Source: Takakia lepidozioides (Eukaryota > Plantae > Bryophyta). From it: a stretch of DNA of 64,000 bases. The notes under the pieces were generated by a model. That model did no database searches. It saw only the letters and a list, made by a program, of their open reading frames with translations, and was not told where the DNA came from. Made by a program: the position numbers and the translations under genes. The DNA lies in assembly GCA_030704615.1 (NCBI GenBank), contig CM060733.1, positions 41,602,001 through 41,666,000 of the forward strand, given 5' to 3'. How positions within the stretch are numbered: position 1 is the first letter of the stretch; each line of letters begins with the position of its first letter. Of this stretch, positions 26,701-57,480 are shown in pieces.

Positions 26701-26775
26701 AGTGTATGACATCTAGGGTGTATCTGGAGGAGTATTGCCTTTGGAGGATCTTTGGGGGGTCCTTGGTACATAAGA

Positions 26776-29700: not shown

Positions 29701-30898
29701 CAGGCAAGTGTACGAGTACGATGTTACCTATATGTGGAGAGGGATGAGACTGCATGACGCGTCTCACTGCGTTATGTTGCTCAGTTGGTGCAGCAGTACC
29801 CTGATTTGTTGCCAGTGTCTGCAGTTTGTGGATACCAACAAGCATTGCCAGTAGATATCTCCTTGCTGGGGGCGCATGATTTGGAACGGGTTGGCCCTAT
29901 TCACTTAGTAGTGGCAGGTTGGCCCTGCCAAGGGCTTTCATCAGCTGGGTATGGCAATGGGTTACAAGACTCAAGGTCACGCCTGTTTTGGGAAATATTG
30001 AGGGTCCTGCGCTATTTACAACTTCAGTAGTCAAACTCTCCGGCATATATGTTGGAGAATGTGCCATTGATGGGTGATTCTCGGGCCAAGGTGATGGCCA
30101 GTGTACATCAAGTGCGGTCTTGGCTTGGGTCAGCAGTGTTGCTGGATGCAGCTTCAGTGGGGTCACGGGCTCATCGCCCACGACTATGGTGGACCACCTT
30201 GATACCACCTGCATTGCTCAAACGTGCATTTAATGGGGGTGCAACGGCCATCAAACCTGACGGTGGATAGCATTTTGGACATAGGGAGGCAGTCTGAGCG
30301 TGTGAGACACGATGACCGATCACCTTTGGCAGTGGTCAATAAGGTGGGTCACCCACGAGCAGCATTGCCTACACTGCTCAGCTTTCCAGGATCTCATGCT
30401 TTCTGGGATGGTGGACCTGGCCTCTTGTGGGATAGCCAGTTGCAATAGTTAGTGGAGCCCAATGCTGACGAGCGCGAGCGGGCAATGGGTTTCACCACTG
30501 GTACCACGGCGGTGCCATCTCTTTCTGAGGCATCACGTCGTCAGGTGTTGGGGCAAGCAATGGATCTCAATTGCTTGACATGGATTATTAGCTTGGCTAT
30601 GGCTGAGCAGCGCAAAGTACGGAGTACACTTCCCTTGATGGTCTCCCTGCCTACCGAGACGATACAGGCAGCGAGTGGGGGCGAACAGGTGAGGACCACA
30701 AGGTGCAGGCCACATCCATGGCACACGTGGGAGGTGCTCGAGGTTCAAAAGGAGTTGGCAGCTAAGGCGGCCGTGATGGATGAGGTTGGGGATTTTTCTC
30801 GGGTTGAGGAGGTCCTCAAGGATGGGATGATGGGGCAGGATGAGACATTGTCACTGACAGAGGAGGCAGTGGTTATTACTCAAGAGGTTGCAGCATAG
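26776..30898 (+). pseudogene. Element A Gag-protease-DNA methyltransferase polyprotein (premature stops, one frameshift near 30235)
   Basis: ORFs 26782, 27001, 27358, 29140, 29785 and 30049 share one frame. Zinc knuckles CWTCGGPHVKKDC and CGHCGKYGHGDAQC; protease LLD(W/S)GAQ; DNMT motifs follow. Confidence 0.88.
29641..30600 (+). pseudogene. C5 cytosine DNA methyltransferase domain (DNMT3/DRM-like), element A
   Basis: Motif I LDLFGG, II YVERD, IV VVAGWPCQG, VI MLENV, VIII AHRPRLWW, IX ERERAMGF, X RRQVLGQAM. Confidence 0.92.
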
Positions 30899-32290
30899 CA
30901 ACCACGGGACGCGTCTTCTACCTCTAAGCCTGCTGGACTCAAGGTTGCAGTCACAGAGGACAATTGGGAGCCTGATGTTGGACCTATAGTCACCGGAGGA
31001 GAAAGACGACGTATACGGCGGTTCTTGAGGGCTTACAGGAATTGCTTTACCTTCAGTTTGAAGGACTTAGGAGCACTGAAGGGTCAAGAGTTTCGCATTG
31101 AATTGGCTACTGATACGCCAATCTTTCGGAGACCCTATAGATACAGTGACATGGAGAGGTCCTTGATTCAGATGAAAACTCAGGACCTTTGGGAGGCTGG
31201 TTTGGTGGAGTTATCTGGGGGAGAGTATGCTTCAGCCACAGTGATGCAGCCAAGAAGGATGTCTATGGCAATTGGACGGAGAGACGTATGTGTGTTACCG
31301 GCCTGTAAATCGTCAGACCAAGTCCGATAGGTATGCCATGCCGACACCAGAGGAGATCTTTGATGCCATTGGGCATGCCAAGGTCTTTAGCACTTTGGAT
31401 TTACGATCCGGATATCACCAGTTGCCGATCAAGGAGGCGGATAAGCAGAAGACGACATTTTGGGGGATCAATGAGCACGGGAAGGATTGCCTATACCAGT
31501 GGCGGTTCTTACCATTTGGGCTGAAGAACGCTCCGGAAGAGTTTCAGAGAGTCATGGACAGGATTCTAGCAGGGGTGGAGTTTGATCGGTGCTACATAGA
31601 TGACATCATCATCTTTAGTGCTACGGTGGAGGAGCATGAGAGACACCTTCAGGTGATATTTGAGCGCTTGAGGGCGCACGGATTGAAGTTACATCCGGGG
31701 AAGTGCAAGTTTTTCCACAACCAAATTGAGTATCTAGGTCACATGATATATCCTGGAGGATTGGGGGTATAGCAGACTAAGGTAGAGTCCATTGCACAGA
31801 TTCCACGCCCCACGGATGTGAGCCGAGTTCGAGCTTTCATGGGGTTAGCAAACTATTATAGACAGTTTGTTAAGGGATTTAGTGCCATTGCAAAGGCTCT
31901 AACCAAACTGACCAAGGTGGACTAGGAGTGGCAGTGGGAAGATGAGCAAGAACAAGCTTTTCAAGAGCTCAAGGCGAGGTTGACCTTGGCGCCCATCTTG
32001 AGACGACCTATCAGGGGGCGTCCTTTTCAGCTGCATACAGATTGGAGCATGCTGGGGCTTGGAGCGGTGCTCACACAGGTGGATGATGAGGGAAGAGAGT
32101 TTGTAGTAGCTTATGCTAGCCGCTCGAACAATGCTGCAGAGTCTAAGTATAGCTCATATGAGGGAGAATGCTTAGCTGCAGTTGGGCCGTGGCACACTTC
32201 AGGTGCTATCTATACGGCAATCTCTTCACCCTTGTCACGGATCACCAACCACTCAAGTGGTTGATGGAGTCAGACAAGCTTACGGGGAAG
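30899..32290 (+). pseudogene. Element A RT and RNase H (cut by the P-like insertion at 32290)
   Basis: LDLRSGYHQ, LPFGLKNAP, YIDD, TDWS, AYASR, YEGECLA motifs. Confidence 0.92.
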
Positions 32291-32669
32291 CCTGGGGGGT
32301 GCACTCCTCATTAAATGTACCAGCCACGTGCGTGCACAGGAGGGGGTATTTTAAACCCCCCCATGTACAACATTATACATACAGAGGGGGGTTTAAAACA
32401 CCTTAAATATAATTTTACAGGAGGGGGTTGTTGAGTTTTAAGGGATAGTGTAGTGGTAAGAATGACGATTACGCCGCGATGCACCGCGGGATCGTCGTTT
32501 TGTTTGTTTGTGTTTTTTTTCGCTCCACGATCTTTCTCCCCTGACCTCCCGCGGCTTTCTCTTTTCTTTCTCCTCCTCTCCCGCGTTCGCCTTCCCTTCC
32601 GCGGGCTTTCTCTTTTCCCTCCTCTCCTCTCCCCTCCTCTCCACAGGGCATGGTAGGACAATGTGGTGA

Positions 32670-35600
32670 GGGCACCTTCTTCTTCGACCTATTTCAGTAA
32701 GCTCATTTCCCTTTGAATGCCTTGCTGCATAGGCTCGTTGCTGTGCCTTCTGTGCTGAACCTACACTGTCCCGCAATGTGCTTTGAAGCTCATGAATTAG
32801 CGTGATCTCTTCCTCCATCATCCTTCGCCTTGCTGCCTGGTCATCAGTGAGCTCCACTAGCTCCGCAATCTGTCGACACCTGTTGTCTTTTGGTTTTCCA
32901 TGAATTGCAATTATTCTCTGCCTCAATCTTCCGGTCATGTGTTCTACCAGATCGTCGGGCAGATCGTTGTAGTGTGGGTAACGTAGCGCCAGGTGCGCCC
33001 AACATCCTTTCTTTTGTGTCCAATATCCATAGATAAACACAAATGGCAGTTTCTCCGCTCCTCCGTATTCTTCCGTCACTGAGTGCATCAATCGCGTTTG
33101 TAGTTCAGTTATAACTGCTGCCCCCCATACATTCTTCCCTTCACTGCACGTGGTGCTCATGCTTGACGTTTCATGGGTATGTTCTCCAGTGCTCGTCGTG
33201 TATGTTCTACTTTCGCCGTTTTCCGTTGCATTTCCGCTTGTGAGATTTTGCCCTGCTTGCCTTCTCGTTCTTCCCTTGTGTAATTAGGCTCTTCACCAGT
33301 CTGAAAATAATACCCTTCTGCCTTCAAATGCACCTTTTCTTTACATCTTTCGGATCGTGTTTGAACCATGTTGATTCGGGACAGGTCTCTCTCCTCATTC
33401 ACCATATGTCGCAGCTCCTTGCCAACCAGCATCCCTCGGCAGATATTCCATGCTGCCATCATGTTGCTCCACTTGTATCTTTAGTTGTAGTGACAGTTGC
33501 TTGGTTCGCCGTTGTGTTTGCAGCCCGAAGGTCATCCCACACCTGCTCAGCTGCTCTTCTGCTTACTGGGTACCCCTGTTCCCTTCTTGTGATCTCTAGC
33601 ATATCCCAATTAGCAGTAAGTGACCTCCTTGTGCCTCCCTTCCTTTTGCACTTGCACCGTATTACCCTCCTTTCACATACAAGGACTATAGTTTCCTTCC
33701 CTTGCTTGTGTAATTGCTGATTTCTTCAAAAGAAAGTTGTTTCATTGCCCCTAAGCAACTCACTGTATCAGGCCTATTCTCCTCCTTATTCCCCTTTCCG
33801 TTGGAATGAGCTGCACGTGTTTTCCATGCAGACATACCATTTCTTCTTCTTGCAGGACCCTTTGCCCAACCCTGTTATTTCTATCATTTGTGCCATTCTC
33901 TTTGCGTTTCCACAACCTCCCCTCATTGCCAGTGAAGTGTTTCCTTCTCTTCCCTGTGTCTTTAAAGACACTCCAACTCTTAGCTGCAGTACCCTTCGCT
34001 GATTTCTTATTGCCTTTGACCTCATGTATGTTTTCAATCATGTTTGAAGGGTGATCACTTGCTGCCATATGCATGACTGTGTCCTTGACTGCTTCTCTTG
34101 TCTCAGTATGATGTTTAATTGTTGTCATGTCAGGCCGTGCTCAGCTGCACCGTGGTGTCTTCGTGGTGGTTTGGAGTGACTTTGCAGATACTGTCGATGT
34201 GGCAGCAGGAAAGTACCCAAAAACAGATAACAGAGATGAAGATAAGCTTTGGAATGAACACTTTTCTGACATGCAATTTAGAGTTGGAACTACTGTAATA
34301 AGTAGGGTTTGGGGTGTTTACTGAAAGAACTTCACGCCGTGAGTGTCAGCTGCTAACAGCAAGGCTGAGGATATATTCATGATTTGTTCACAGGCAGGGA
34401 TAGCTGAAGACCAGGGATAGAGGTCCAGATTCATCCAAGAGGGCCGGATTTCACACACAAGATTACGTCTGATTCCCTGTGGATCAATAGCTACAAGAAA
34501 TCTGTCTGGGTAGATGGTCAACTGGAAACAACAGCGGCAACAACGGTTGTAGAGCAAGGACTACTGATAAAGGTACCTTCTTCAACACATTTGTGGTGAG
34601 GTCACCTTCTTCTTCGACCTATTTCAGCCTGTTTTTCCCTCTCATCAGACTCATTAGCTCATTGGGATGATCTGTGGTGGTTTGGAGTGACTTTGCAAGT
34701 TACTGTCGAAGTGGCAGCAAGAAAGTACACAAAAACAGATAACAGATTGTACTCATAAGACGTTGTTTGCCGTAGCCTTGTGGCCATTGACCCCGCGCAC
34801 AGTTTGAGCGGGAACAAAAGGGACAGAACCTACCTCTGTCAGGGGCTGCTGTGTGTGATTTGCCCAAAAACTAGGCCTCAGGAGGGCCTAGGCTTTTGGC
34901 TCAGCCTCAAGACTTCCAAAGTTGGTAAACAGGGGTACAGGCACAATTCCCTTGATAGATTTGAAGAGAGCGTCTCTTTGGTGAGAGAACCCCGGACACT
35001 GTATCAGAAAATGAATATTGTCTTCAGATTGCCCACACAATGGGAAGTGCACTCCCCCTTTCCTCTCTGCTTCTGTTTGCTCTTCAAAGGTAGGCTTCCT
35101 TCCCTGAGTTTAAATTTCAGTCTAGTGCCGAGAGTGGGTGGACCCTTGAGGTCATCCAAGATGTCCTCCCCCATGTCAATGACTAGAAACAAGTTCAGGG
35201 AAGTTTTCTGCCTAACTTCATTTTCATCAGACAATCTCATGGCAACAGACATGGCTTTGGACACTACAGCCTCTAAGTCGGATTTATCTAGCAGGGTCAA
35301 GACTTGCGGATCCAGGTCCAGGTCCTTGAGAATCTCTTCTACTCTGGTGTTGGGAAAACACCTTTTGATCTCAGTCCAAACCAGGAAGTGGTCAGAGGTA
35401 CCAATATCAGTTCTGTCGATCAACACATTGGCACACTGGGGGAACAAAATTTTGTCCATTATGATATAGTCCACAATGGAACGTTCCCCAGTTTGGGATT
35501 TCTCACGAGTCCACTGCACTTGGTCACCTCTTGTCTTGTTATTCAAGGTCAAAAGCTGAAGCTCTTCCAGACAGTTAATTAACCGTCTGCCATTAGAATT

Positions 35601-35690
35601 CAGCTCGTCCTCACCAGAAGACCCAATGATATCGTCCTGATGGAGCCCTTTGCCCACTTGGGCATTGAAGTCACCCTGCAATAGCACCAC
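32670..35690 (-). pseudogene. Scrambled LINE fragments carried inside the P-like element (AP endonuclease pieces)
   Basis: 35690-35300 LQGDFNA...SIVDYI...TSDHFLV matches APE motifs. 33462-33300 AWNICRG..ELR..INMVQT resembles the APE N-terminus. Confidence 0.7.
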
Positions 35691-36310
35691 AGAGATGAAG
35701 AGAAGCTTTGGAATGAGACACTTTTCTGACCCCAGTCAATGGTGGGACAATGTGGGTGGATGGTCAACTGGAAACAGCAGCGGCAATAGCGCAATTGATA
35801 GAGCAAGGCACTGCTGATGAAGGTACCTTCTTCAACACATTTCAGCCTGAGGGCACCTTCTGGTTTGACCTGTTTCAGCCTGTTTTTCCCTCTCATCAGA
35901 CTTAGCCCTGAAGCATATGTATTGAATTCTGTAAGTTAGCTTGTTGGGTGGATCTGCAGTGCTTTGGAGTGACTTTGCAAGTTACTGCCGAGGTGGCAGC
36001 ATGACAGTACCTAAAAAAAGATAATAGAGATGGAGAGAATCTTTCAAGGAATGGATACTTTTCTGACCCCAGTCAGTGGTGGGACAATGTAGGAGATGGT
36101 CAACTGGAAATAGCAGCGGCAACAGCGCAATTGATAGAACAAGGGACTGCTAATGAAGGTACCTTCTTCAACACATTTCAGCCTGTTTTTCCCTGTTATC
36201 ATAGTCGTCCCTAAATTTCCAGATGGCCGGATTCCAAGCTCCAGATTACCTATGATTCCATGTGGAAGGATAGCTACAAGAAACCTGCATGGGTAGATGG
36301 TCAACTGGAA
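34150..36310 (+). repeat. Shuffled modular repeats
   Basis: ttggagtgactttgca..gtggcagca at about 34170, 34680 and 35965; gatggtcaactggaa at 34513, 35759, 36096 and 36297. Confidence 0.7.
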
Positions 36311-36831
36311 GCCACTGTAGCAGCTGCAGAGGCATGATGTACGCATTGTTAGTGTGGAGGGAGGGGTAGCTGTTGATGCAGGGAGAGGATCGTGGGTGCA
36401 AAAATCATCCAAGAGGGCCAGATTTGGAGCAAGGAACAGTGCTGGCAGGAGTTCTATAAATATGATCCACAGTGGTGGGACAATATTGTCAACAAGGTGA
36501 GCTTTCTTCATGCAACATCATAGGGAGTTGACAGAACTTTGTATTTAAATATGTTAGTGTGGAGGGAGGGCTAGCCGCTGATGCAAGGATGGACTGTGAG
36601 TTCAGGATCACCCAAGAGGGCTACCAGCAGTGGAAGTAGCAGCACTTGGTCAATAGCAGCAGCAAGAATTAGCAGCGTCAAACTCATCAATCAGGTACTT
36701 GCTTCTGTACACATTTCATCCTCTTATCAACGTAGTCCCTGCTTGGACAGCCTATAGGGCTGTATAAAACAGGACTTTGGAACCTTCCAACCCGGGTGCT
36801 TTGTTATTGGTCTATCAAGGTCTGATTTGAA

Positions 36832-39800
36832 ATGTTTTCATTGCATTTTGCAGGTGAACTCATCATGGAAGAAGAGTTGGAAGTAAAAGTCCTGCTCATT
36901 GGAGGAGATGCATCACCAAACAGGCTTGGTTCTGTGTTCACTATGCAAGGTGTCACATACAAATGCATCCGAGCAGAAATTCTAGGTGATGAGCTTGTCT
37001 CAGGAAAATTTCCTTTCCTTTCCATGGGGGGTAGTGTCCTTTCAGCCAAGCAGGAAGAGATGATGGTTCTGAAAGGGGATACTATACACATTAAGATTTC
37101 AGACCAAAATGATGGGGACCAAGGATTGAAAAGACCTCTATCTTCGAGTGGCTCTACGATCTTGCATGAGGACAGACCAGGCGAGGACCCGGCACCAGTG
37201 TCTAAAAAGATGAGGATGGACCCTGATACACCCTTTGCTGGCGATGGTGGAAATGAAGACCATGCACATGAGCATGCACTTCAGCAAAGATATGGTAGAT
37301 TGTGCAGCACGTTGGCTACATCCAGCGATATTCAAAAATGGCAGAAAGAGATTAGAGCCGTTGAAAGGAAAATCTCTGCAGAAGGACGATGTGACAAGTT
37401 TGAGCTCATGACAAAGGATCAACAAGGACAAGCAATGTTCCACATATGGTGTGTTGAGTGTGAGGATGTTTATGCACGGTATGGGAAAAACAAACCATAT
37501 GATGCATGTGCAAACTTTATGAGATCTCATTTGAGGAGTGAGGGGCATCGCATAGCCTATGAGAGGCGTCATGGGAAGGGTTCATCACAATGTGTCATCA
37601 GCCCTGTAAATGCAGATGAAGCATTAGATGCAAAGAAGAACAGGGTGAAGGAGGCATTAGAGGAAGTCACTCGGTTTTGTGAGGACAATCTTGGACAGAT
37701 TGAGATTGTGGAAGCCACAATTGGAGACTATTCGCAGTTGGGTTCCATAAGGATTAAGTGCGCACTTGATTCGAAGTGGCTACTCTTGTTTCCAAGGACA
37801 GGTTCTTTGCAATCTTCTTTGACAGAGCATGTGAAAGGAAAAACTCATGTCGATGCAGAGATTTGCCAGAAGGTTGGCAGTAGTGAAGGACTGTGCAAAA
37901 AGAGAGGAAGGCCTCCAAAGCCTATGATTGCCAAAGATGTAAAGCAACGGGATCTAAGCTCTTTCTTGGTCAGTCAACTTGTGTTGCCGTCCCCACCACT
38001 TGACAATCCAATTGTGGCATCAACAATGGGAGCATCCTCGTCACAAACTCCATACACTTGTGTTGACGCTACCCAACGGGCAGATCTGATTGAGGATTGA
38101 CAATTACAGCGACGGTCCCAATGCAACAAAGGAAGAGACAGTTTGTGTTGGGGCCTATGGGATGAATGGTGGGAGTACAACCACAAGAGAATAAGTCTGA
38201 AACCATTCCTTCAAGATAGCAAGGGAGGAAAGAAGTGGTATGTCGAGCCGTTGACACATGCAACCATCACTCTAAACAATCAAGAGCATAAGGTTGTTGG
38301 TACGTTTCGGCACGCGGATTGTTTTAGAGTGTCATTGGATGGGGAGCTATTTCCAAACTTGAGGTGTTCAACATGTTCTTCCATTCCCTTGGAAAATGAT
38401 TTCAGAATGAGGGTATATAGAGAGAGAGGTGCCATGGAATGTAGAGGGGAGAGAGATACTGGCAAGGGAAGAAGGTTGTCATATCTTGGAAATGCCGAGA
38501 TTGTCAAACAAGTTTACAAAAACAGACAGGAGTTGAGGTAGTTGAGGTTCAAATTGTGGGAGGCCAGGACCAAAGTGGCATCCTTGTCTGTGCGATGTAG
38601 GAGTTTGAAGGAGTCTGGGATTGAGGCAATTGAAAGAGGAGACATTCTCAAATTTTGTCGTGATATTGTTGATGCACATAGGAGGGAGGATTTTGAAGGA
38701 AAAGAAAGTTTGTGGGATTTTCTTGTTGATATGGGCAAGAATATTGACAGGTCTCCACAAGAGAAGAGGTATGGTACTAGCACAAAAACAATGTTTGAGA
38801 CTGTGCAGCTTTGGGGGGGGTCCGAGATTGCATCATTTTGGCTTCAAATGTGGGGGGTCCTTCTATTGATACTACAAGACGGTCTTTGAGGAAAGGTTTG
38901 AAGTATAGAGCGGGAGAAACATATGATATATTTCAGCATGTGGCTGGAATTTACAGAGATGTGATGGAAGATGCAAATATTCCAATGGGAAGCATCCCAG
39001 TGATGGTGGCCAAAGATGAAACTGTTGTGAAGCGATTGGTACGTTGGATTGCTAGGGATGACACCCTTCTCGGGTTTTGTGGGCTTCAAGACAACCATGT
39101 ATGTATTTCAAATTTTGTGGTGCAAGTGGGAGAAGGGGAATCAGGGTACGAACATATTGTGGAGGCATTAAAAAACAATGTGGTTGTCCATTACGCCAGA
39201 GTGTTGATAGCAAATCCTCTACATGTACGGTTACCTCGATTGGTATTAGTAATCCAGCTCACTTGCAATAGATTTGACAACAATTTTGTGAGATCACAAT
39301 GGGAAGTGGTGAGATAGTTGTGGGACAAATATGTGAGGGACGTGGTTGGGCCTATAATTGGGCATGCTTCAGACGGAGATAGTAGGAGGAGAAAAGTGAT
39401 GTTAGAAGATTATGCCAATGGGGCTGGAAGTAGATTTTGCATCCTTTGGGAAGGATGGTTGTTTACAGGTCGAGTGTGCAACGGGGGAGATATATACGGA
39501 CTCCATGATCAAGACTTCATCCACAAAGAGAAAAAATTGGTAAATCCCTTGGACAGTGCATCACGGACTTTGGTGTTGGGTGATGAGGTTGCTACATTGA
39601 ATCATGTGTTATTGGTCTACCATTCATTTTCAATGGACAAGCATGGACTTCGGGAATGTGATATCAAAAGAGAAGATCGACAGAATTGGGCAGCAGCTCA
39701 ACGACTGGCATCTCGGAAGGTGCAAGCTTGTTTGAGGGAGTTACAATCAACTGTGAATCATCGAAGAGAGAGGACCAAAAGTACTGAAATTTACCTATAC

Positions 39801-40303
39801 ATCATTTCATGCTACATCGACATTTTTTTGTCTCCTCACATGTCATTGTGTGAGAGGGTACAATTTGCTGCGAAGGTATCGTTTTTTTTCAGATTGTGGA
39901 AGTTGTGGCTATTCCACCACGAGGTGTATAATCTGAAATCCTTCTTCATTAGCAGGGAAGCATACTTGGATTTACAAATTTCATGCCACTACGTGGTTCT
40001 ACTTATCAAATTGTTCAAGGATAAGTTTAATCATGTGCAAGTTCTTTTGAGCCTTGTTGGTTCAGATGTGTGTGAAATATTCTTCAGCAAAGTGGGAGGT
40101 ATGTTACGGAATGAGAAGACATATGACGGGTGTGATTTGATTGAGAGTGCGGGAGCATTAACACGCATATCCAAGTTCGAGGTGAATCCAAAAGGACCCA
40201 AGTTCTCAAGAGCTCACAAGAAACAAGAACACATTTGGTCTTCTTTGGAGAAGAAGCCAGGTATCCCCCTTGCTGATTTGTCCAACTTTTCTACTGTCCA
40301 ATC
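36832..40303 (+). pseudogene. P-like transposase, N-terminal and catalytic part (stops and frameshifts)
   Basis: C2H2-like fingers (CVEC..H..H) and an AT-hook KRGRP. Catalytic-type motifs KDET, ASDGD, DFIHKEKKLVN (DxxH..K), DRQNWAAAQRL and SDVCEIFFS. Confidence 0.75.
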
Positions 40304-41329
40304 TGTCAAGTTAAATAAGCACAGTGTGAAAACAGCTAGAATAAAACTAGTTATTTGTATTTAACACTTGGATTTAGGTCAAGTGTTAAATCAGGTGTCA
40401 AGTTTAGTTTGACACCTGGTCCGTCTTATCTTCACGAGAGCGGCAGTCGCGCGGCTCATCTTTCTCGAGTTGAGCCTACGCGACCGAGCTCCTTCATGCG
40501 TTTAGATTTGAGTGTGCTTATGATGGGAGTGTAGGTTGTTGTGGGGTGGAGTCCCCATAGCTTGGGGTGCCCCTGGCTCGACTTCTGTTTTAAAGAGTGA
40601 TAGCGATGGATTCATGTTGTTTCTGGTGTGAGCAGTGTGTTTTCTAGTTTTCTTATCACTCGAGAAAGATGCTCTCTTACCTGTGAGTGCAAGGTAGGAG
40701 TTGAGGGTTAGCACTTGCAAGATTACCTACGTATAAATAGTGCTTAGTTTGAGAAGCATATCATTGAATGTGACCACAAGATTCAGCGTGCCCTGAAACG
40801 CCTGGAGGATGACGATGCCAGAGCCGCCACTGTTATTGCAGTCGCTGAAGCTACCAAGTCACTAGAGGCTTTGGGGTTCACAAGGAGATACTTAAAAATG
40901 CAACAGCAAATGCTAGTTGGCACCTATGCATGATCCTTGAAGCTGGATGATCGTTTCACCAGTAAGCTTATAGAGGAGCCTGCTGTTGCAATTGTTTCTT
41001 GTATCGGGGTCGGTCTTGGACCAAAATTTAGCTTCAGCTTCTTTGTCAATCATTTGCTTTGATCATGCAAGAGCGCCATGCAGCGGGTTAAGGGGCAGGG
41101 CTATGGAGCAGAAAAGCGACATCCTCTTCGCAATGCGCAGAGGACGGAGTTCCGTGTATATGGTTGCTATGGAGCCTCGCCAACAGTAGAACTTTGCGCT
41201 TTCCGTTCTTGGGGTTGCTGCATTGTATGCGCCCTAGGATCCGGGCTTGGAATTGTCTTCTGACCAATTCAGCAGAAACGAACGACGAACGTACTCTGGC
41301 CTGATTCCCTACAGTAAGCAGGAGATATA

Positions 41330-41969
41330 TAGCTCAACGCCATCAACGAGTACACCTAAGGAGGTTGTACACCACAGCAAGTGCCGTCAGAATCTTGTCG
41401 CCAGAGGATCCAGGCTAAGCAGCATACGATGGCCACCTCACGGCCAAGCTTGGAACGGCTCTTACCATACCATATGAGGAACTTGTCGAAGTAGAGGAAA
41501 AAACTTTCACAGACATGTCTGGCGAGATTTGAAAGAGTAGTTTTCTTGCTTTGACGTTGTTTCATGTCCTCTGGTTCATGGAGCTCATGACAACAAAAGT
41601 CGAGCGGCAGCGGACGTACTGGGCGCCGAGCAGAAAGGATGGTCAGGGGGACGACTGTTTCCCTTGCCCAGCAGCTAAAGTCGTAGTTAAGGCCACATAA
41701 CACTTGACGGTGGTGCTAAGGTCACCTGCAGGAGCTTCATGATAAGTGTCCCAGGATCCGTCAGTTCTCTGCAGGCTCCGAATGCAACGCACGACTTTTT
41801 CTTTCTTTGGGTCATCTGTAACGCCCAGGAAATGCATAGCCAGAATCCACTCCGCTTCCATTGTACAGCCTGATTCGACCTGGCCCGCCCAATAGCCCTC
41901 TGGATTCTGCTTACGGAAACTCCAGTCAATTGCATCGTTGATGACCTGATCAAGCGGTGTTGCATCCAT
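41330..41969 (-). pseudogene. shc: Squalene-hopene cyclase N-terminal fragment (intronless, internally deleted)
   Basis: QNPEGYWAGQVESGCTMEAEWILAMHFLG..QRTDGSW..GDLSTTVKCYVAL / YDFSCWARETVVPL / WILWRQDSDG..GVQPP*VYSLMAL show QW repeats and SHC-specific blocks. Confidence 0.85.
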
Positions 41970-44180
41970 GGACTCGAATGCTCCCATACACCCACTTCCC
42001 TGCAGTAAGCAGTTCACATTCACAAAAGTGCTAGAGTTTCAGCTGCAGGATGGAGACGACGGGTTTGGGAACGGCGGAGCCGAGCTACGCTGGGGATAGA
42101 CGAGCGATTCAGGAGCCAGGGCTTTCTCCCCCGTAACTGGAATGGGCCGGGGACCCGCAAGCTCCAGCACAAAGTCCAGTGCTTCCCGCTGGTAATCCTC
42201 CTCAGTGATTTTCGTTAGCCACCAAGGCCTCGAACAGACTGTGAGTGACCCCTCGCCTGTACATGGCGTCCATAAACATGTCCATAAACATGTCTTTCCT
42301 CCCCCTCTCTTGGTGCGCAAGCCTGCAAGCAATCACGGAATCCACTCTCTTTCACAACAAGACACTACTGAGTGCCACAGTTCCCTTCCTCTCTCTCTCT
42401 CTCACTCTCGGTATGCAGAAGACTGGAGCAAGGTGTGAATTATAGGGCACGTTGCCAGGGAACCTAGGAAACCATATAGAGCGTAGGGAACCGGGAACCA
42501 GTTACCAGATAGTTTAGGTGTAACTTTAAATTTTTAAATTTGAAAACCTTAGAAAAAAAAAAAAAAAAAAAAAAAAAACAGGGCATTTTGATCTAATTTA
42601 AATGATTTAAAGCCAAATTGGTCATATCTTTGTCAAATGGACTCTGTTTGACCCAGTTTTTGAGGGGATAGCTGCAGAAAGGGGAAATCTACCATTCTAG
42701 ACCTGGTTTTTGTTTTTAGGACTCTGCTAAAAATCATCTGGAATTTTTAGAGTGTGAGTGTGCCATGAAAGATCCACAATTCTGTTTCTAGAACCTGTGC
42801 TGGTCTATATGAGAGACAAATCTGTGGATGTACTCCTTGTATGGCTGGGGGAAATGAGGACGTAATTGAAGGGCAGGTCTCTTCTTCTTAGCCTGTGCAC
42901 ACAAGGGGACAGGATTTATGTTTCCCAAGGAACTCAGACTGATTTGAGTGGAGACAGTTGGACGAGTTGATTGCATACTGGGAGTCAGGCATTAGCAGTA
43001 GACAACAGACTCTGTAGTTGGCGTTGAGGGCCTCAATATCGCTTTGGACAGTCAGAACTCTGTTGGAGCCAGCAGTTCTGCAGCTGTAAGTGAAATACCA
43101 AAGTGGGTGAAAGCTAGGCTTGGAACACAGCCAAAGACAGCCCCGGGGACCAAGGTGTTCAGCCGCAAGGCTGTGGTGTACTGGAGCAGAGGAGCAGGAG
43201 CTACACAAGTTTGTGCAATCAGACAGCGTTTGCAGCCGGACACGCTCTGCACAAGGCAACCACGAGCGAGGGTTCATTAGCGAGGACAAGTTTGTTCTGT
43301 TTGAAGGAGATGCAGTCATTCGCAATGAGGACACCGCACCGTCTCAAAGCTTTCGAGTTGAGAGACTATCATACTCTACCTTTGTTTCTTAGTGTTCAGT
43401 GAGCGGGGAATAGCAGAGTGTTGCTTTGTCTCTACTTGGCAAAAAGAGGAGGAGGGTTGGTTAGAGCGAGCTACTGTAGCTTGGGACAAAGGTTAGTAGC
43501 AGGTTTCTGGACATAGATATACCTCCTACACCTTACCATCATGCAGAGCGAGGCACTTTGAGAGAAGTCTGGCAGTTGATAGCATAGATCAGGATTAGAT
43601 CTTGCTGGGTCGGGCTTTCTATTCTTCCCCCCATCTCTGTACTATTTTCATTACCTGTTACTTGTAGTTGCCAAAGCCTCTCTTGGGAGGCCAGTCAGTC
43701 CGGGGTTTTGGGATATTCTGCAGGATCAGCGTTGCTGCTGGATTTTGGTGTGGGGTGTTGATGTTTTGATTTCTTGTGTTGGATCCCCCCAACACCTGCA
43801 TGCTTGACTGTGCGCCATGTTTGTTTTGTGTGGGCGCTTGCTTTCATAGGGATTAGGCCGGATTTGATCACCGGTCAATCCTAGAGTATGCTGTCGGTGG
43901 TGAGGCTGGAGTGATGACCAGCAAGACCACCAGTGTTTCTTCTATGGTGAGGCTAGGTTGATGACCAACCAACCATAGGAGTTCTTGCGGTGGATGCAGG
44001 TGCAAGTGCCCTGAGCCATTGGGATATGACCCTTAGACTGCAACAGGTGCCCACCCGTGTCACTATTAGATTAGTACTAGAGACTTATAGTGTCACGTGG
44101 AGGAGGTGCACATTGTGAGTGTCATTACGGAGTTACCCAAGGGTTTTGAGGGGAGTACGGCTACAAGCAGTACCAGTGAG

Positions 44181-47100
44181 ATGAGGTTCACAAGACGAGG
44201 TATTCGGTTCAGACCACCTTCACCGCCACCCTCAACTACTGGAGAGTCAGACACAGACTCGGAGGCTTCATCAACAGGTGTGCACTTTCATTCGCCATTG
44301 TTCTGGGAGGAGATGTATGGAGCTACCAAGGGGCCTCGTAGGTACTCTGGAGCTGTGGGCACAATCGAGTTGGATGACTTTATCCAGGAGTTCGATAGCT
44401 GGTGTGATTTGCAGCAGATGCGCAATCCACAGCTATTCACCCCATTCATGGCGTGGAAGGGACTGTTCCAGCATTTGGAAGCCCGCCTATGGACGATTAC
44501 CACGAGTTCAGGCGGGACATAAGCAGAGATTGAGGAGTGGAGGATGTATTGGTCACCTGACTACGTCTCCATTACTCGAGGCACGACGCGACCAGTAGCT
44601 GCACTCATTCAGTACCAATAGCTCCCACTGCCAGCACTAGTAGTGGAGCAAGTAGTGCTTGGTACTTCTGCAGGTGGTACCAGTTCAAAACGTTGCTACT
44701 ACTCCTCCTGCCACGACTACAACACATGTGCCTAGATTCAACCCGGTGCTGGAGTTCTTCCAGGAGTTTGCGGAGGAACTACCAAGGTGTACGGACAGAA
44801 AGCTGCGAAGTTTGCAAAGACTTCCAGCGCAAACCCAGTGAGAGCCTGCGAGAGGCGTACACTCGTATGAACGCTTGATAAGTGTGACCCAAGGGGTTAC
44901 TGAAGCTCAAGCAATCCCATTTTGGTATGGAATTTGGATAAGGAGCTCAAGAAAGGGTGCGAGATGCAACCCTGTTACAAGCAGCCCAACCCACATTAGC
45001 ATATGTGTTTCTGCTGGCTGAGCGATGAGCTCAACATGGTGGAGGAGCGAGTTGTTACCATTGGATTTGGCAAAGGACATGCCTACACGAGGCGGTAGCT
45101 GCCAGCCCACAGGCCACAGGAACCGCTCAACAGCGTGGTCATGGGGGCAAGGTTGCCCAGCCCAAGTTCCATGGAGCTTACAGGGGACCTCAGGTGCAGA
45201 GGCCCGTGGCATCTTTTGCAGGCCAACAGCAACCAGGGGTGATATGTTGGACATGTGGAGGACCCCATGTCAAGAGAGATTGCCCAGAGAGTGGCAGAAG
45301 GCCGGCACAAGCACAGCCTGCACAGTTGCAGTGTGGGCATTGTGGCAAGTATGGGCATGGAGATGCCCAGTGTTATGACTTGCATCCTGAGTTGCGCCAG
45401 GCCAGTTCCAAGGGAACAATGGTGGCCGGGGGCGAGGTGGACCAGCCCAAAGAGGACGAGGTGGTCGGGCACGAGGTGCAGGCCAAGGGCAAGCTCACAT
45501 GGCCAAGGACGCGGAGGTCAGGGTGTTGACCAAGGCATGGCCAACGGCTTCAGCAGCTAGAGCAGAGGCTCGCTGCCATGGCTATAGCTCAGGCGGTACC
45601 GGCTCCCCAGGCGGGATGGTCCACCTCCTGCTCCTGAGGGAGGAGATATGGGAGGCATGGGATTCATGTGCGGAGCAGCACTACCACTAGAGCAGGTGGA
45701 GTCTGCTGCAGCCGTGACTCGAGGAGCAGCACGAGTTCCTGAGCCACGAGGTGCAGAGGTGGAGTTGGATCCACAACGTGGGGAGGCAAGCCGTCAGGCA
45801 GGCTTCCTCAGTCATTCACCTTGGCGGAGACTGTCACGCCATCCATGGCACCTAGTTCTCGCCCGACTGTTACCGAGGCGGAGGTTACTATGCCATTGGG
45901 GAGAGCTACACGTGCAGCACTGACACCTGCTGCCAAGGCTAGTGCGGCCGGTGTGTTATTGGGGGCAGCCACCTCTGTGTGTCAAGCCCCACTGTTCTCG
46001 GCAACAATGATTGCGACGCCGGGGGAGACCAGCTGCAGTGTTCAGACTAGCAGCAACACTCTGTGAGAGTGGGGAGGTCACTTCATCTTCTGCGGAGTTA
46101 GTGGAAGGTGTAGTGGCAGAGGGATCCTCGGATTTGAGGGTCAAGACTGCCACGGCTGCGCCCTGGCAAGCTGCAGCTGCCAGGTTGACGGAGCTGCCAG
46201 CTAGGCCAGCCTTTGAGCGCGCCATGGTGACACCTGGAGTTGTCTTGTTAGACAACCAGGGAGGCATTTTCACTTTGAGTGGACCGGCAGGCAAGAAGTA
46301 CCGGCCACTGCGGGTCTTGTTGGACTCGGAGCTCAGCCACTGATGTTGGGCAGAGCTGCTATTGCAGGTTTGGGCCTCATGGAGGCGGATATGGAGCCTT
46401 GTCCTTTCCAGATACACATCTAGGATCAGAGCAGGCTCGGGGCATGACACGGCATCAGTTGGCCATTAGACTGCAGCCGGATCATCCTGTAGATGGCTCA
46501 GTGATGCGAGCCAAGGCCATTGTGACAGACGCGGTCTCTTACGATGTCCTCGTTGGTGGGGCAGTGTTATACCCCATGGGCTTCACCCTGGATTTTTGGG
46601 AGGAGTCAGCATCCTACAGGCCTGGATGGCAGTCAGGGATGGTCGCCGTGCACAGCTCCCTGACATTCATTGGGGGTATTGCGCTGCCCAGCGGGGCAAG
46701 ATGCCAACACTAGCCGCCTTTACAGCTGCAGTTAGTTGGCCTGGAGAGTTGCTGGAAGGCAATGCCCATGCAGAGGATGTGCCACCTCCAGCAGAGCAGG
46801 ATGACATGCATGGTACGGCGGAGTTGCCTGCCATGGTTGCTCACACTCCATTGTGGGGTACGAGCAAGGATTTGCAGCAGGTTGCTGATGACGGGTGCAA
46901 CAAGCTGGGTAGAGGCTTTTGTACCGTCAGGAGAGGAGGAGAGCGGGATTGCACCAGGACCACCTCAGTTGTCACCATTGGACACCACACCTATTGTGTG
47001 GCAGCCGGATGAAGGCATTTGCCTTCTGGACTTGTTTGGCGGGATCAGCACCGGATTGGCTGCTGTGCTACAGGCAGGTGTGCGAGTTCGACGTTACCTG

Positions 47101-48260
47101 TATGTGGAGAGGGATGAGACTGCACGACGCGTCTCACTGCGCCATGTTGCTCAGTTGGTACAGCAGTACCCTGACTTGTTGCCAGTGTCTGCAGTTCGTG
47201 GATACCAACAAGCCTTGCCAGCAGACATTTCGTTGCTGGGGGCGCAGGATTTGGAGCAGGTTGGCTCCATTGATCTGGTAGTGGCAGGTTGGCCCTGCCA
47301 AGGGCATTCATCAGCCGGGCATGGCAATGGATTGCGAGACTCGAGGACGGGTCTGTTTTGGGAGATGGTGCGGATTTTGCGCTGCTTGCAGCTTCATCAA
47401 GCTGTATCTCCAGCATACATCTTGGAGAATGTGCCACTGATGGGTGATTCTCGGCCAGGGTGATGGCCAGTGTGCATCAAGTCCGGTCGTGGCTTGGGTC
47501 AGCAGTGTTGCTGGATGCAGCTGCAGTGGGGTCACGGGCTCATCGTCCACGGCTATGGTGGACTAACTTGATGCCACCCGCACTGCTCAAGCGTGCATTT
47601 GATGGGGTGCAGCGGCCAGCACACCTCACCGTGGATGGCATTTTGGACACAGGGGCAGTCTCAACGTGTGAGACACGATGACCGTTCGCCTTTGGCAGTG
47701 GTCAACAGGGTGGGTCAACCACGAGCAGCATTACCTACACTGCTCAGCTTCCCAGGATCCCATGCTTTTCGGGATGGTGGACCTGGCCTCCTGTGGGATG
47801 CTCAGTTGCAGCAGTTAGTGGAGCCTAATGCCGACGAGCGAGAGCGGCTATGGGGTTTTTCCACTGGGACCACGGCGGTGCCTTCTCTTTCTGAGGCATC
47901 ACGTCGTCAGGTGTTGGGGCAAGCAATGGATCTCAATTGCTTGACCTGGATTATCAGCTTGGCTATGGCTGAGCAACGTAGAGTGCGGAGTGCACTTCCC
48001 TTGACGGTCTCTCTGCCTACCGAGACGGTACAGGCAGCGAGTGGGGGCGAGCCGGTGAGGACCACGGGGTGTAGACATCCATGGCACACGTGGGAGGTGC
48101 TCGAGGTTCAGAGGGAGTTGGCAGCCAAGGCAGCTGTGATGGATGAGGTTGGGGATTCTTCTCGGGATGAGGAGGTTCTCAATGATGAGATGATGGGGCA
48201 GGATGAGGCCTTGTCATTGACTGAGCAGGAAGGGGTACTGCTCAAGAGGTTGCAGCATAG
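44181..48260 (+). pseudogene. Element B Gag-protease-DNA methyltransferase polyprotein (many single-base indels)
   Basis: Colinear with element A; two CCHC knuckles, LLDSGAQ protease; ends at the conserved TAG 48258-60. Confidence 0.88.
47011..47960 (+). pseudogene. C5 cytosine DNA methyltransferase domain, element B
   Basis: LDLFGG, GWPCQG (Cys codon 47296-98), ILENV, AHRPRLWW, ERER..GF, RRQVLGQAM. Confidence 0.92.
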
Positions 48261-51200
48261 CAACCACGGGACGCGTCCTCTACCTCTAAGCCCACTGGAC
48301 TTAAGGTTGCAGTTACGGAGGACAATTGGGAGCCTGACATTGGACCCATTGTCACCGGAGGAGAGAGACGACGTATACGGCGGTTCCTGAGGGCTTACAG
48401 GAATTGCTTTGCCTTCAGTTTGAAGGACTTGGGAGCACTGAAGGGTCAAGAGATCCGTATTGAGTTGGCCACTGACACGCCAATCTTTCGGAGACCCTAT
48501 AGATACAGTGACATGGAGAGGTCTTTGATTCAGATGAGGACTCAAGATCTCTGGGAGGCAGGTTTGGTGGAGCTCTCTGGTGGAGAGTATGCTTCAGCCA
48601 CAGTGATGCCAGCTAAGAAGGATGTCTATGGCAATTGGACGGAGAGACGTATGTGCGGTGATTACCGGCCTGTAAATCGTCAGACCAAGTCCGATAGGTA
48701 TGCCATGCCACACCAGAGGAGATCTTTGATGCCATTGGGCATTCCAAGGTCTTTAGCACGTTGGATTTACGATCCGGATATCACCAGTTGCCGATCAAGG
48801 AGGCGGATAAGCAAAAGACGGCATTCTGGGGGATCAATGAGCACGGGAAGGATTGCCTATACCAGTGGCGGTTCTTACCATTTGGGCTTAAAAACGCTCC
48901 CGCTGAGTTTCAAAGAGTCATGGACAGGATTCTAGCAGGGGTGGAGTTTGCTCGGTGCTACATAGATGACATCATCATCTTTAGTGCTACGGTGGAGGAG
49001 CATGAGAGACACCTTCAGGGGGTATTTGAGCGCTTGAGGACGCACGGATTGAAGTTACATCCGGGCAAGTGCAAGTTTTTCCACAACCAGATTGAGTATC
49101 TGGGTCACATGATATATCCTGGAGGATTGGGGGTACAGCAGACTAAGGTAGAGTCCATTGCACAGGTTCCACGCCCCACGGATGTGAGCCGAGTTCGAGC
49201 TTTCATGGGGTTAGCAAACTATTACAGACGGTTTGTTAAGGGATTTAGTGCCATTGCAAAGGCTCTAACCAAGCTGACCAAGGTGGACCAGGAGTGGCAG
49301 TGGGAAGATGAGCAAGAACAAGCTTTTCAAGAGCTCAAGGCGAGGTTGACCTCGGCGCCCATCTTGAGACGACCTATCAGGGGGCGTCCTTTTCAGCTGC
49401 ATACAGATTGGAGCATGCTGGGGCTTGGAGCGGTGCTCACACAGGTGGATGATGAGGGAAGAGAGTTCGTAGTGGCTTATGCTAGCCGCTCGAACAATGC
49501 TGCAGAGTCTAAGTATAGCTCATATGAGGGAGAATGCTTAGCTGCAGTGTGGGCCGTGGCACACTTCAGGTGCTATCTATACGGCAATCTCTTCACCCTT
49601 GTCACGGATCACCAACCACTCAAGTGGTTGATGGAGTCAGACAAGCTTACGGGGAAGCTTGCACGGTGGGCACTCATCCTTCAAGAGTATGACTTTCAGG
49701 TGGTGCATCGACCGGGTTTGGTCAATCGAAATGCAGATGGGTTGAGTCGCAATCCATGCACGAGCCAGCAGGATGACACTGGAGCTCGGTGGCATGGTGA
49801 GACGGACGAGGAGATGGTGCCCGGATGGCATGCATCTGCATTTCTGTGTATCTTGGCAGCGGAAGGCCAGGTTGGACCTGCAACAGGGATGACTGTAGAT
49901 CAAGTGTCTGAGGACCCTGAGGCCAGCAATGAGCAGGGTGGCGCCAAAGATATACATGAGGATTCAGTTGTGTTGGACTACCTCCGCACTGGAGACACGG
50001 CAGCCACTATGACTGCCACAACGAGCCAAGAGGTTCAGGTGGGAGGGACACACCTGCTCCGAGTGGGGAGGATGGTCGAGTGAGGATTGTGCCTCACCCA
50101 ACACAGCGGGCACGGTTAGTGCGGCATGCCCATGAGGAGTTGGGGCATTTTGGGGTGCGACGCACTCATAGTCTACTGCAGGGGCAGTATTGGTGGCGTG
50201 GTATGCACACAGAGGTGCAACAATTTGTGGCTAGGTGCATGGTGTGTGACAGGGTGCGTGCTTCATTCAACGCCCCTACTCCACAATTGCACCCTCTTCC
50301 GATCATGGGATTGGGCTACAGGTGGAGTCTTGACTTCGCAGGGCCGTTGCCACTGACCATGCGCCACAACAAGTACGTGTTGGTGATGGTGGAGCACTTT
50401 CTCCAAGTGGATTGAATTGGTTCCATTGCCTGATAAGGCTAGTGAGGGAGCTGCGTATGCATTCCTGGATTGTGTGCTTAGCCGATTCGGTGCTCCAGCT
50501 GAGGTACTCACGGACCAAGGAGAGAGTTCTTGGGGGAGTTTCAGGCTTTGTGTGACAAGGCCTTGATAGACCACCGCACCACTTCTCGGGATCATCCTGA
50601 GGCCGATGGCTTGGCAGAGAGAGTTGTTCAGACAGTAAAGAGGGGTTTGCGCAAGTATGGCTTGCAGAAGGGACACCTAGGAGATTGGGACCTTCAGTTA
50701 CCCTGGTTAGCCATGGGCTACAGGTTCAGCAAGCAAGCATCACTTGCCTCCTTCTCACCATACTTTCTTCTCTTTGGCCGAGAGCCGGATTTGCCTACAT
50801 CCATTCGCAGAGAAGCTGCTACAGTTCTTAACCTTGACGATCCGGACGTGTGGGCACGTGCATGTGAGCAGCGTGCAGAGTTGTTCAAGAGAGTCATGCC
50901 CATGGCTTTCGAGAACCTTGCCATTGCACAACACCGTGATACGTTGAGGTATGCTACCATACGTGGTGGGGGCTATCGTCCTGGGGTTCGGAGATTCAAC
51001 CCTGGTGACTATGTCTATCTGCAGCAGACTGCTCCTACGACCCTGGATGTGACTGCAGGACGTGTTATTTTGAGGGTTCGAGAGGTCTTGCCCTCAGGCG
51101 TCTTGGTCTTGGAGGTCGGGATGGCATAACTTGGAAGGACCATGTGCGTAATTGTGCGCCATGTCACCTTCCGAATGTCGATGGCAGGATTGACCCAAAC

Positions 51201-51371
51201 CTGGCAGTGGTATCTGCAGGTTTGAGGTGCATGTTGTGTGGGTCTGCTAAAGGGGCAGCCACCATGCTGGTGTGTGATCGATGCTCTAGAGGTTGGCATA
51301 TGGGATGCTTGACTCCACCTCTTGAGATGGTTCCGGATGGGGATTGGTTATGTCCACATTGCATTGGATAG
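48261..51371 (+). pseudogene. Element B RT-RNaseH-integrase-PHD
   Basis: YIDD; RNase H TDWS/TDHQPL; integrase HHCC (HAHEELGH..CMVC), WSLDF, LTDQG, AER; C-terminal C4HC3 PHD CMLC..CDRC..HMGC..WLCPHC. Confidence 0.92.
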
Positions 51372-51629
51372 TGGGAGTGGATACAACCATGGAAGGCTAA
51401 CAAGAAACGCAAGGCCCAGCTACTAGGAGACCTTGAACACACGAGGTCCTGGCTCAAGTTCACAGATTGCAAGACGGCGACTAACGATGGGGCTACTCTT
51501 GTACCGGCCTCTTGGTCTATAGAGTTTGAGTACAATAGGGACAGTGATAGAGGACTTAGTACGGCTGTGGCTATTACATCTTGTAGCTATCTGGAGGTAG
51601 AGGGACCTATCCACCAGCTAGGGGGCGAT

Positions 51630-52155
51630 TGTGGCAGACTACTTTATTGTGCATATATGTGTGGTGTGGTTTGGACAGCGATGTAGTTGTGTAGCGATAT
51701 GTATGCGCACGACAGCTGTCAAGTTAAATAAGCACAGTGTGAAAACAGCTAGAGAATAAAACTAGTTATTTGTATTTAACACTTGGATTTAGGTCAAGTG
51801 TTAAATCAGGTGTCAAGTTTAGTTTGACACCTGGTCCGTCTTATCTTCACGAGAGCGGCAGTCGCGCGGCTCATCTCTCTCGAGTTGAGCCTGCGCGACC
51901 GAGCTCCTGCATGCGTTAGATTTGAGTGTGCTTATGATGGGAGTGTAGGTTGTTGTGGGGTGGAGTCCCCATAGCTTGGGGTGCCCCTGGCTCGACTTCT
52001 GTTTTAAAGAGTGATAGCGATGGATTCATGTTTTTCTGTGTGAGCAGTGTGTTTTTAGTTTTCTTATCATTGTGGCAGACTACTTTATTGTGCATATATG
52101 TGTGGTGTGGTTTGGACAGCGATGCAGTTGTGTAGCGATATGTATGCGCACGACA
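51630..52155 (+). repeat. Element B 3' terminal structure Y-GC-X-T-Y
   Basis: Y' duplicated at 51630-51714 and 52071-52155; X' matches 40304-40658. Confidence 0.92.
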
Positions 52156-52159
52156 GCTC

Positions 52160-53136: not shown

Positions 53137-53428
53137 TTAATTTGTTAGATTTTATTATGTTTTAAATGAATAAATTCGATATAATATAAAAACATACATA
53201 TACATATTGGAGGGTTATTTTTAATGATGGAAAATGAGAATATACATACAGAAGGGGTACTTTTTAAAAATTGTAAATTTTTGTATATTTACAGGAGGGG
53301 GTTTTATAATTTTCAAAAAGTATGTACAGAGGGGTATAAATTATCCAAGGACCCGTATACAGGGGGTTTTTTTATTAGGCGACGAACGCACGTAATACGC
53401 ACAGTTTATAAAGAGTGCACCCCCCAGG

Positions 53429-57460: not shown

Positions 57461-57480
57461 GCCGATCCCCGTCTGTATTC

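Follow-up and report, generated by a model that had tools for sequence, protein, structure and literature searches.

Putative self-priming and a proposed integrase site inside the LTR in Gypsy-DNMT3-type retrotransposons with split direct repeats from Takakia lepidozioides

The two decayed retrotransposons A and B were found in a window of 64,000 nucleotides from Takakia lepidozioides (assembly GCA_030704615.1, contig CM060733.1, positions 41,602,001 to 41,666,000 of the forward strand). The organization of their termini and of those of their relatives suggests a replication cycle in which a self-primed transcript, the joining of both cDNA ends and an integrase cut at a palindrome inside the LTR would together generate split ends, a model to which we assign a probability of about 0.6. 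One of its parts, the priming of A and B in cis by their own transcript, Tf1-style and without a tRNA, is very probable. It had been proposed in an initial annotation of the sequence and gains support from a family-specific pairing in seven terminal types, from a TATA element at -29 in 6 of 12 sequences and from a primer complement retained in the related locus L037.

Layout and coding content of the elements

Comparison of the window with itself revealed two elements with the arrangement X1-internal-Y1-X2-Y2 and a single solo X-Y remnant, copy C. A 21-kb TIR element (32291-53428) interrupts element A (24752-55960) within the RNase H region of the latter and in turn contains element B (40304-52155), inserted in a long unnamed open reading frame of the TIR element (39318-40364, resuming at about 52158). 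The features of the three copies are listed below.

12101..12397, + strand: copy C, old A-type solo X-Y remnant with deletions in the tract hairpin and over the X/Y joint; its flanks form no target site duplication (TSD)
24752..25111, + strand: X1 (5' repeat) of A; left terminus TGTC, 4-bp TSD AAAT at 24748-24751
24927..24939, + strand: putative self-primer tract of A, 13 nt, with one G:U to the PBS; its first base is the predicted transcription start
25112..25124, + strand: PBS of A, starting at the A of the apparent terminal CA
26765..32290, + strand: decayed coding region of A, 5' part (gag-like, protease-like, C5-DNMT, in-frame TAG at 30896-30898, RT, start of RNase H)
32291..53428, no strand assigned: TIR DNA element splitting A, with 8-bp TSD
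40304..40657, + strand: X1 (5' repeat) of B; left terminus TGTC, target AATC at 40300-40303
40453..40476, + strand: hairpin GGCTCA..TGAGCC around the tract of B, U3-dependent and predicted only with U3 attached (3' RNA copy, plus-strand DNA)
40458..40470, + strand: putative self-primer tract of B, 13 nt; its first base is the predicted transcription start
40658..40670, + strand: PBS of B; G40671 gives a 14th pair with C40457
44185..51371, + strand: decayed coding region of B (gag-like, DNMT (PF00145), in-frame TAG at 48258-48260, RT, RNase H, integrase, PHD)
51620..51627, + strand: G-run polypurine tract (PPT) of B, immediately 5' of Y1
51628..51714, + strand: Y1 of B, 87 bp
51711..51720, no strand assigned: palindrome GACAGCTGTC at the Y1/X2 joint of B, predicted integrase att site
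51717..52068, + strand: X2 of B, 97.5% identical to X1, its tract copy with C at 51877
52069..52155, + strand: Y2 of B, 98.9% identical to Y1; right terminus GACA, followed by GCTC and not AATC
53437..55161, + strand: coding region of A, 3' part (end of RNase H, integrase with H2C2 and rve, PHD)
55410..55418, + strand: decayed polypurine tract of A, preceding Y1
55419..55505, + strand: Y1 of A, from the window self-comparison
55502..55511, no strand assigned: palindrome GACAGCTGTC at the Y1/X2 joint of A, read from the sequence
55508..55873, + strand: X2 of A, 95.6% identical to X1; its tract copy at 55689-55701 pairs 13/13 with the PBS
55874..55960, + strand: Y2 of A; right terminus GACA, TSD AAAT at 55961-55964

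The decayed coding regions of both elements comprise gag-like, C5-DNMT, RT, RNase H, integrase and PHD parts, with the Pfam order RT-RNase H-integrase and with PF00145 present in A, B and the intact relative L147. The closest solved reverse transcriptase is that of Ty3 (PDB match with E 3.5e-65), and the integrase is of the DDE type, combining H2C2 with an rve domain which in L147 contains the D, D and E motifs. It is followed in A, B and L147 by a PHD and not by a chromodomain. A tyrosine-recombinase element was considered and rejected in light of the rve domain, since matches to tyrosine recombinase Pfam families were absent from the scanned open reading frames of the window and from 8 of the 16 listed for L147, including its three main ones. 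In 6 of 9 sequences viewed (A and B at 30896-30898 and 48258-48260, L147, L024, L028 and L080), the DNMT frame is separated from the RT frame by an in-frame TAG with CAA or CAG after it, likely a read-through signal that sets the ratio of gag-PR-DNMT to pol.

A search among longer proteins scored 7982 sequences, of which 2831 were relatives, and 120 were listed; among these matches the best named relative belongs to Marchantia (76%), and Klebsormidium, Closterium, Haematococcus and Tetraselmis contribute others. Taken by themselves, these matches suggest a bryophyte-like land plant as the probable host. In an RT-RNase H tree of 133 sequences (FastTree, rooted on one insect protein, with L079 and matches below 290 aligned residues excluded), the window sequences fall within a clade of green-lineage elements bearing DNMT and PHD, grouping with such proteins of Klebsormidium, Closterium and Marchantia, and the clade that unites them with P0078, P0088 and P0003 has local supports of 0.90-0.98. 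They are separated from the chromodomain-bearing matches, in a tree that contained neither a Tf1 nor a Tcn1 reference. Locus L152, with ordinary TG..CA LTRs, is located outside the clade.

Judged by their sequences, A and B are thus Ty3/Gypsy elements of the Gypsy-DNMT3 (KnitGypsy-Dnmt3) type. The element of that name from Klebsormidium nitens combines Gypsy domains with DIRS-like A-coding-B-A-B repeats (de Mendoza et al., 2018, PMC5890265), and the available text shows that it shares with A and B both the Gypsy pol with C5-DNMT and this repeat layout; which of the Klebsormidium proteins in our tree corresponds to it we infer. No primer, PPT, att palindrome, TSD, priming or integration mechanism is described in the available text and supplementary files of that study. 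Streptophyte Gypsy-DNMT3 elements are also named, in the accessible part without terminal detail, in a preprint (bioRxiv 10.64898/2026.05.21.726589), and in its accessible part another report describes such methylase-bearing elements as absent from land plants such as tracheophytes (PMC6338049), in contrast to which the Marchantia proteins carry a DNMT-RT fusion.

The initial annotation had treated A and B as separate families, which does not hold in the sense of independence because their coding regions are 89-92% identical, an identity that includes the 3' UTR and extends as far as the PPT. It drops at the start of Y, with the termini showing only 57% identity in X and 67% in Y. Their 5' regions also differ, and this pattern can be read as one backbone with swapped terminal modules and a switch at the PPT boundary. 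The long 5' region of B contains, on the minus strand at 41356-42038, N-terminal fragments of a squalene-hopene cyclase, either a captured piece of a host gene or a nested insertion. Elsewhere, the window holds further DNA transposons, seen as inverted repeats of about 410 bp located 10 kb apart (8513-8923 and 18848-19253) and, in their vicinity, a hAT dimerisation-domain reading frame (6333-6947). It also contains an array at 57478-58785, built from units of 121-128 bp and 63-64 bp in which a palindromic core recurs and accompanied by an inverted pair of 88 bp, and a LINE-like endonuclease fragment on the minus strand (35004-35735; PF14529, below cut-off).

Pairing between the leader tract and the primer binding site

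The proposal of self-priming was based on a complementarity between the sequence following X1 and a tract within X. All strings quoted in the initial annotation were recovered at the positions it had given, and there is, as it had reported, no TGG after the 5' repeat of either element. In B, positions 40659-40671 are the exact reverse complement of 40457-40469, and in A, positions 25113-25124 pair perfectly with 55689-55700 and, apart from one G:U, with 24927-24938. The helix turned out to be longer by one base (T40470-A40658 in B and T24939 or T55701 with A25112 in A), and the A of the apparent terminal CA is for this reason the first base of the PBS. We thus define a helix of 13 bp, formed in B by 40458-40470 and 40658-40670 and in A by 25112-25124 with either 24927-24939 (one G:U) or 55689-55701 (perfect). 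The number of 13-mer complements expected by chance within X is about 1e-5 in B and 3e-5 in A, and each PBS and tract string of both elements occurs only once in the window. Folding of the putative leader yields this helix in B (z -3.97, equalled by 0 of 200 shuffles) and in A (z -2.77, 1 of 200). In the 3' tract copy of B, the C at 51877 breaks one pair.

A hairpin GGCTCA..TGAGCC with the tract in its loop had also been described. The stem is exact in A X1, B X1 and B X2, whereas the 5' arm in A X2 carries a G>A change, and the tract is not confined to the loop since it overlaps the stem.

Whether the pairing extends to relatives was evaluated in loci retrieved with a 37-sequence alignment, comprising the best 80 of 311 metagenome relatives, 66 loci of a viral collection and 7 of a genome collection. 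Repeats were examined in 90 of them, with L084-L146 (28-37% identity) excluded from all terminal analyses; three further loci (L081-L083) show neither a PPT-att nor a self-primer signal and are located outside the clade. A complete Y1-X2-Y2 was found in 17 loci, equivalent to 11 distinct insertions once shared flanks were merged, and X1 is also present in three of the 17 (L006, L079, L080). Four loci (L024, L053, L069, L147) read Y-X-PBS and, taken as collapsed repeats or circles, were excluded from counts of arrangement, and in L149 a PPT, Y and the palindrome are present, while a PBS and a second Y were not found. Most loci originate from few related samples, and families 80 and 79 may thus represent few hosts. 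Several of these eukaryotic elements (L147, L148, L149-L151) reside in contigs filed as bacterial MAGs, likely a consequence of binning contamination.

For 17 of the 21 X copies, the homologous tract is the site of the best helix with the sequence following X, with a score matched in 0-4 of 100 shuffles; in the other four, the tract was lost through different deletions. When five families were tabulated by one representative each, all 65 cells pair (13/13 per family), a completeness that is partly selected because the representatives are the best-pairing copies of their families; other copies of family 80 contain distal mismatches. Nine of the 13 columns show two or three Watson-Crick pair types, and tract and PBS match at 13/13 positions within a family compared to 5-11/13 between families. 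Further perfect helices were found in L024 (16 bp), L053 (16 bp) and L069 (19 bp), and since L024 is close to L147, the helix is retained in a total of seven sequence-distinct terminal types, which extends to relatives the earlier observation that the sequences change while their pairing is kept. These counts were obtained from coordinates; a MAFFT alignment of leaders across families misaligned the tracts, and a de novo search for 12-mers missed L069 due to its distance limit and returned unrelated matches in L009, L028, L044, L061 and L069. The conservation of the pairing across related families suggests that copying likely starts without a tRNA.

As side observation, the tract hairpin is deleted in 4 of 10 5' copies of family 80 (L005, L006, L011 and L056 X1) and in 0 of the 7 3' copies seen, and a deletion of like kind is found in copy C (12278-12290). 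Such deletions may result from slippage across the hairpin during the copying of X1 on a single strand of DNA; the numbers are small.

The region upstream of the tract provides a second indication of its role. A TATA element starts exactly 29 nt 5' of the first A of the tract in 6 of 12 sequences (L080, L013, L147, L024, L069, L072) and thus in five terminal types; among the 12 sequences checked it is absent at this position in A X1, A X2, B X1, L053 and L079 X2, and in copy C it is located at -21. The first A of the tract (24927 in A, 40458 in B) is the putative transcription start and coincides with the start sites proposed in the initial annotation. In folding predictions, the presence of the preceding U3 determines the fate of the tract: with U3 attached, a local hairpin takes up the tract in 7 of 7 sequences, and with U3 removed the long-range helix forms in 9 of 9 leaders, a result that is favoured by the trimming of sequences at the helix ends.

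A third line of evidence is found in L037, which reads PPT-Y1-X2, continues into the complement of the tract and then into an inverted U3 of 94% identity to its forward copy, and which ends exactly at an att half-site. This would be the expected product of a plus strand that has copied its primer and subsequently folded back on its own tract. An aberrant left end in L038 (4571-4815), in which an inverted Y, PPT and 3' UTR are joined to a short end of X and the PBS, also stops at an att half-site.

The perfect complementarity found in B may not be typical for its type. In host DNA, a C at 40462 accounts for 528,438 of 670,504 depth units (79%) in run X2 and for 543 of 598 (91%) in run X5, where depth does not equal copy number, the runs are contigs, the variants are unphased and the depth at the PBS region is far below that of X; no change is listed at the partner position 40666, in a table that omits differences near the ends of pieces. 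Many B-type copies may thus form 8 pairs, then a C-A mismatch at the fifth primer position and 4 further pairs.

Polypurine tract, repeat joints and integrated ends

The second pronounced feature of these elements concerns their ends, which deviate from the ordinary Ty3/Gypsy layout in an integrated form X-I-Y-X-Y with the PPT preceding Y1. A G-run is located directly 5' of Y1 in all 17 loci with complete Y-X-Y, and none is found before X2 or Y2 in the same loci. Together with a PBS that follows X, this position suggests that the replicated LTR likely consists of Y+X and that it is split at an internal palindrome. X alone as LTR was rejected, as no PPT precedes X2 and the TSD is located beyond Y2, and Y as a 90-bp target duplication was dismissed because it is family-specific and common to different insertions.

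At the X2/Y2 joint, an X that ends immediately 5' of the PBS is fused to Y from the base after a G-run-pyrimidine-purine sequence. This rule holds in A, B, L148 and, if G>A decay is allowed, in 6 of 8 family-80 joints, with L015 and L006/L054 as exceptions that retain PPT-side bases, in L006/L054 with a 17-nt insert. The joint thus appears to fuse a primer-defined with a PPT-defined end. In L031 and L049, Y1 and Y2 of the same element share sub-lineage variants.

The Y1/X2 joint is in A and B formed by the palindrome GACAGCTGTC, which is found exact or decayed in relatives, including distant loci, and which is symmetrically altered in L069. Its two halves constitute the integrated ends. Among 10 insertions with both ends visible, a perfect 4-bp TSD is found in seven (A, L006, L079, L080, L011, L019, L072), and it is imperfect in L064 (3/4), B (2/4) and copy C (1/4). 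The right flank of B (52156-52159) reads GCTC where the target copy AATC was expected, and its GC matches the centre of the palindrome and may be a retained 5' flap. About ten distinct insertions stop at Y1 without X2-Y2 (X-I-Y form), four of which show X1 and a TSD. At the 14 distinct left ends seen, those of 12 loci and of A and B, X was in no case preceded by Y.

A model of replication and its alternatives

In the model that we favour, transcription would begin at the A of the tract, and the first 12-13 nt of the transcript, whose complementarity to the PBS was described above, would pair with it, be released and initiate minus-strand synthesis at the final base of X. The plus strand would be primed at the G-run located before Y1, giving rise to a cDNA of the form Y+X-internal-Y+X. 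The two cDNA ends would then be joined, in the simplest case as a 2-LTR circle, to generate the joint found between X2 and Y2. Finally, the DDE integrase would cut both strands of the palindrome, in each case after GACA, compatible with the termini and the 4-bp duplication found at insertions. A cut at the site of the left LTR would result in X-I-Y-X-Y, and a 1-LTR circle or two cuts in X-I-Y, although the latter forms could also stem from later recombination between Y1 and Y2 or from assembly collapse. At the 3' end of the RNA and in plus-strand DNA, the second tract copy would, according to the foldings, be masked by the U3 hairpin.

Several observations stand against this model. A and B lack the TATA element at -29, host DNA carries the C at 40462, the tract is deleted in 4 of 21 copies and the TSDs of B, L064 and copy C are imperfect. 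Its main gap concerns a missing product: since a 2-LTR circle contains two equal palindromes, X-Y-X-I-Y should also be generated, yet this mirror form was not encountered among the 14 left ends, and a route without a covalent circle explains its absence better. Such a route, in which self-priming and the Y+X LTR are retained while the plus strand jumps from the end of X to the start of Y, or an initial cut at the left site releases a Y piece that is attached at the right end, with the integrase subsequently using the first start of X and a later end of Y, would account for the occurrence of both X-I-Y-X-Y and X-I-Y and agrees with the precise fusion found at most joints. We nevertheless consider it unlikely, because the 17-nt insert of L006/L054 and the retained PPT-side bases resemble end-joining, and because the GC after GACA at the right end of B, albeit a single case, fits a cut of both palindrome strands with a 2-nt flap kept.

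A different explanation is offered by elements of the Ngaro/PAT type, where the ends have been proposed to be rebuilt on a splint provided by the B1/A2-type joint. By analogy, the X2/Y2 joint would be inherited, with an RNA that reads into Y2, ends rebuilt on the Y1/X2 splint and the positions of PPT and PBS as relics. In favour of this reading, family-80 joints are mostly alike, and the layout is the same as the A1-ORFs-B1-A2-B2 arrangement described for VIPER, Ngaro and PAT in the available text of PMC6681497. However, the joint tracks the boundaries of PBS and PPT in each family despite their differing sequences, element-specific variants are common to Y1 and Y2, L037 has a primer complement after X2 and the pairing is maintained through double changes, which renders an inherited joint improbable.

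Alternatively, the primer might derive from the tract copy that the RNA carries in its 3' X, provided by the RNA 3' end or by a cut in the hairpin loop, instead of the transcript 5' end. The inverted U3 of L037 could be the copy of such a longer primer, and the hairpin, which requires U3 bases, forms for that reason in the 3' copy. The TATA at -29 in five terminal types, the closure of the helix in all nine 5' leaders and the fact that the U3 arm in foldings of L080, L147, L024, L053 and L079 buries the tract rather than presenting it make a 3' origin of the primer quite improbable. Priming by a host tRNA or tRNA half, with the complementarity as incidental hairpin, is very improbable given the lack of a TGG after the 5' repeats, the low chance expectation of about 1e-5 and a PBS that differs among seven terminal types and follows its own tract, even if the tRNA search with ARAGORN, which found none, had the 64-kb window as its scope; a search of Rfam returned a single chance match (E 0.35).

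Priming from the transcript 5' end, as assumed in our model, has precedents. The primer of Tf1 comprises 11 nt, compared to 12-13 nt or more for the putative primer in the clade of A and B. Accessible text describes self-priming for Tj1 and Tf2 (PMC4600332, PMC5341516) and predicts it for plant Tcn1 and the TAR lineage of Ty1/copia (PMC6317226), and Tf1, Tf2, Tj1 and Tcn1 share with A and B a transcript 5' segment complementary to a PBS beside the repeat end and the absence of a tRNA site. The likeness to Tf1/sushi elements drawn in the initial annotation is thus justified for the self-complementary PBS, but it does not extend to classification. A and B differ from Tf1- and Tcn1-type chromoviruses by a PHD in place of the chromodomain, the added DNMT, their split ends and a PPT that is located about 90-190 nt 5' of the att site instead of at this site, and without chromodomain they are not filed as chromoviruses despite their probable Tf1-like priming. 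In the TAR lineage, self-priming is likewise predicted in plants, but according to the accessible text this lineage belongs to the Ty1/copia superfamily and carries ordinary LTRs (PMC6317226).

Split direct repeats are shared with Ngaro, PAT and VIPER, where the available text also describes solo A-B remnants (SIRE) that are comparable to copy C (PMC6681497), whereas A and B contain a DDE integrase, a 4-bp TSD and a Gypsy RT, without tyrosine-recombinase match in the scanned reading frames. For the predicted integrase step, the closest parallels are foamy virus and HIV-1, where, in the accessible reports, integrase cleaves palindromic 2-LTR junctions (PMC1180852, PMC4372172) and a DDE integrase thus cuts an internal palindrome to obtain two processed ends. 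In these viruses the joining of the cDNA ends creates the palindrome; here the LTR already encodes it, apart from the end joint, and its cleavage would be the normal route. A literature search largely confined to papers outside subscription found no report of self-priming or of an internal att site for this Gypsy clade. Self-priming and the split layout are each known, and their combination, together with the proposed mechanism, was not found in the literature searched.

Collectively, our analysis would add a self-priming lineage beyond chromoviruses and TAR, with natural covariation over many families, and it would provide, in the literature searched, the first concrete account of how a Gypsy element acquires DIRS-like split repeats. 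LTR finders would take X as the LTR, so that Y2, the TSD and the PPT would escape them, and X-I-Y copies would go unnoticed entirely. The predictions of the model regarding start site, cDNA ends, circle joint and att cut are easy to test. In a wider sense, and at what we consider even odds, the clade may have separated the integrase site from the cDNA ends: its members would prime themselves, make a two-LTR cDNA, join its ends and cut a palindrome within the LTR, with the end-joined circle as normal substrate of a DDE integrase and the split direct repeats as its footprint.
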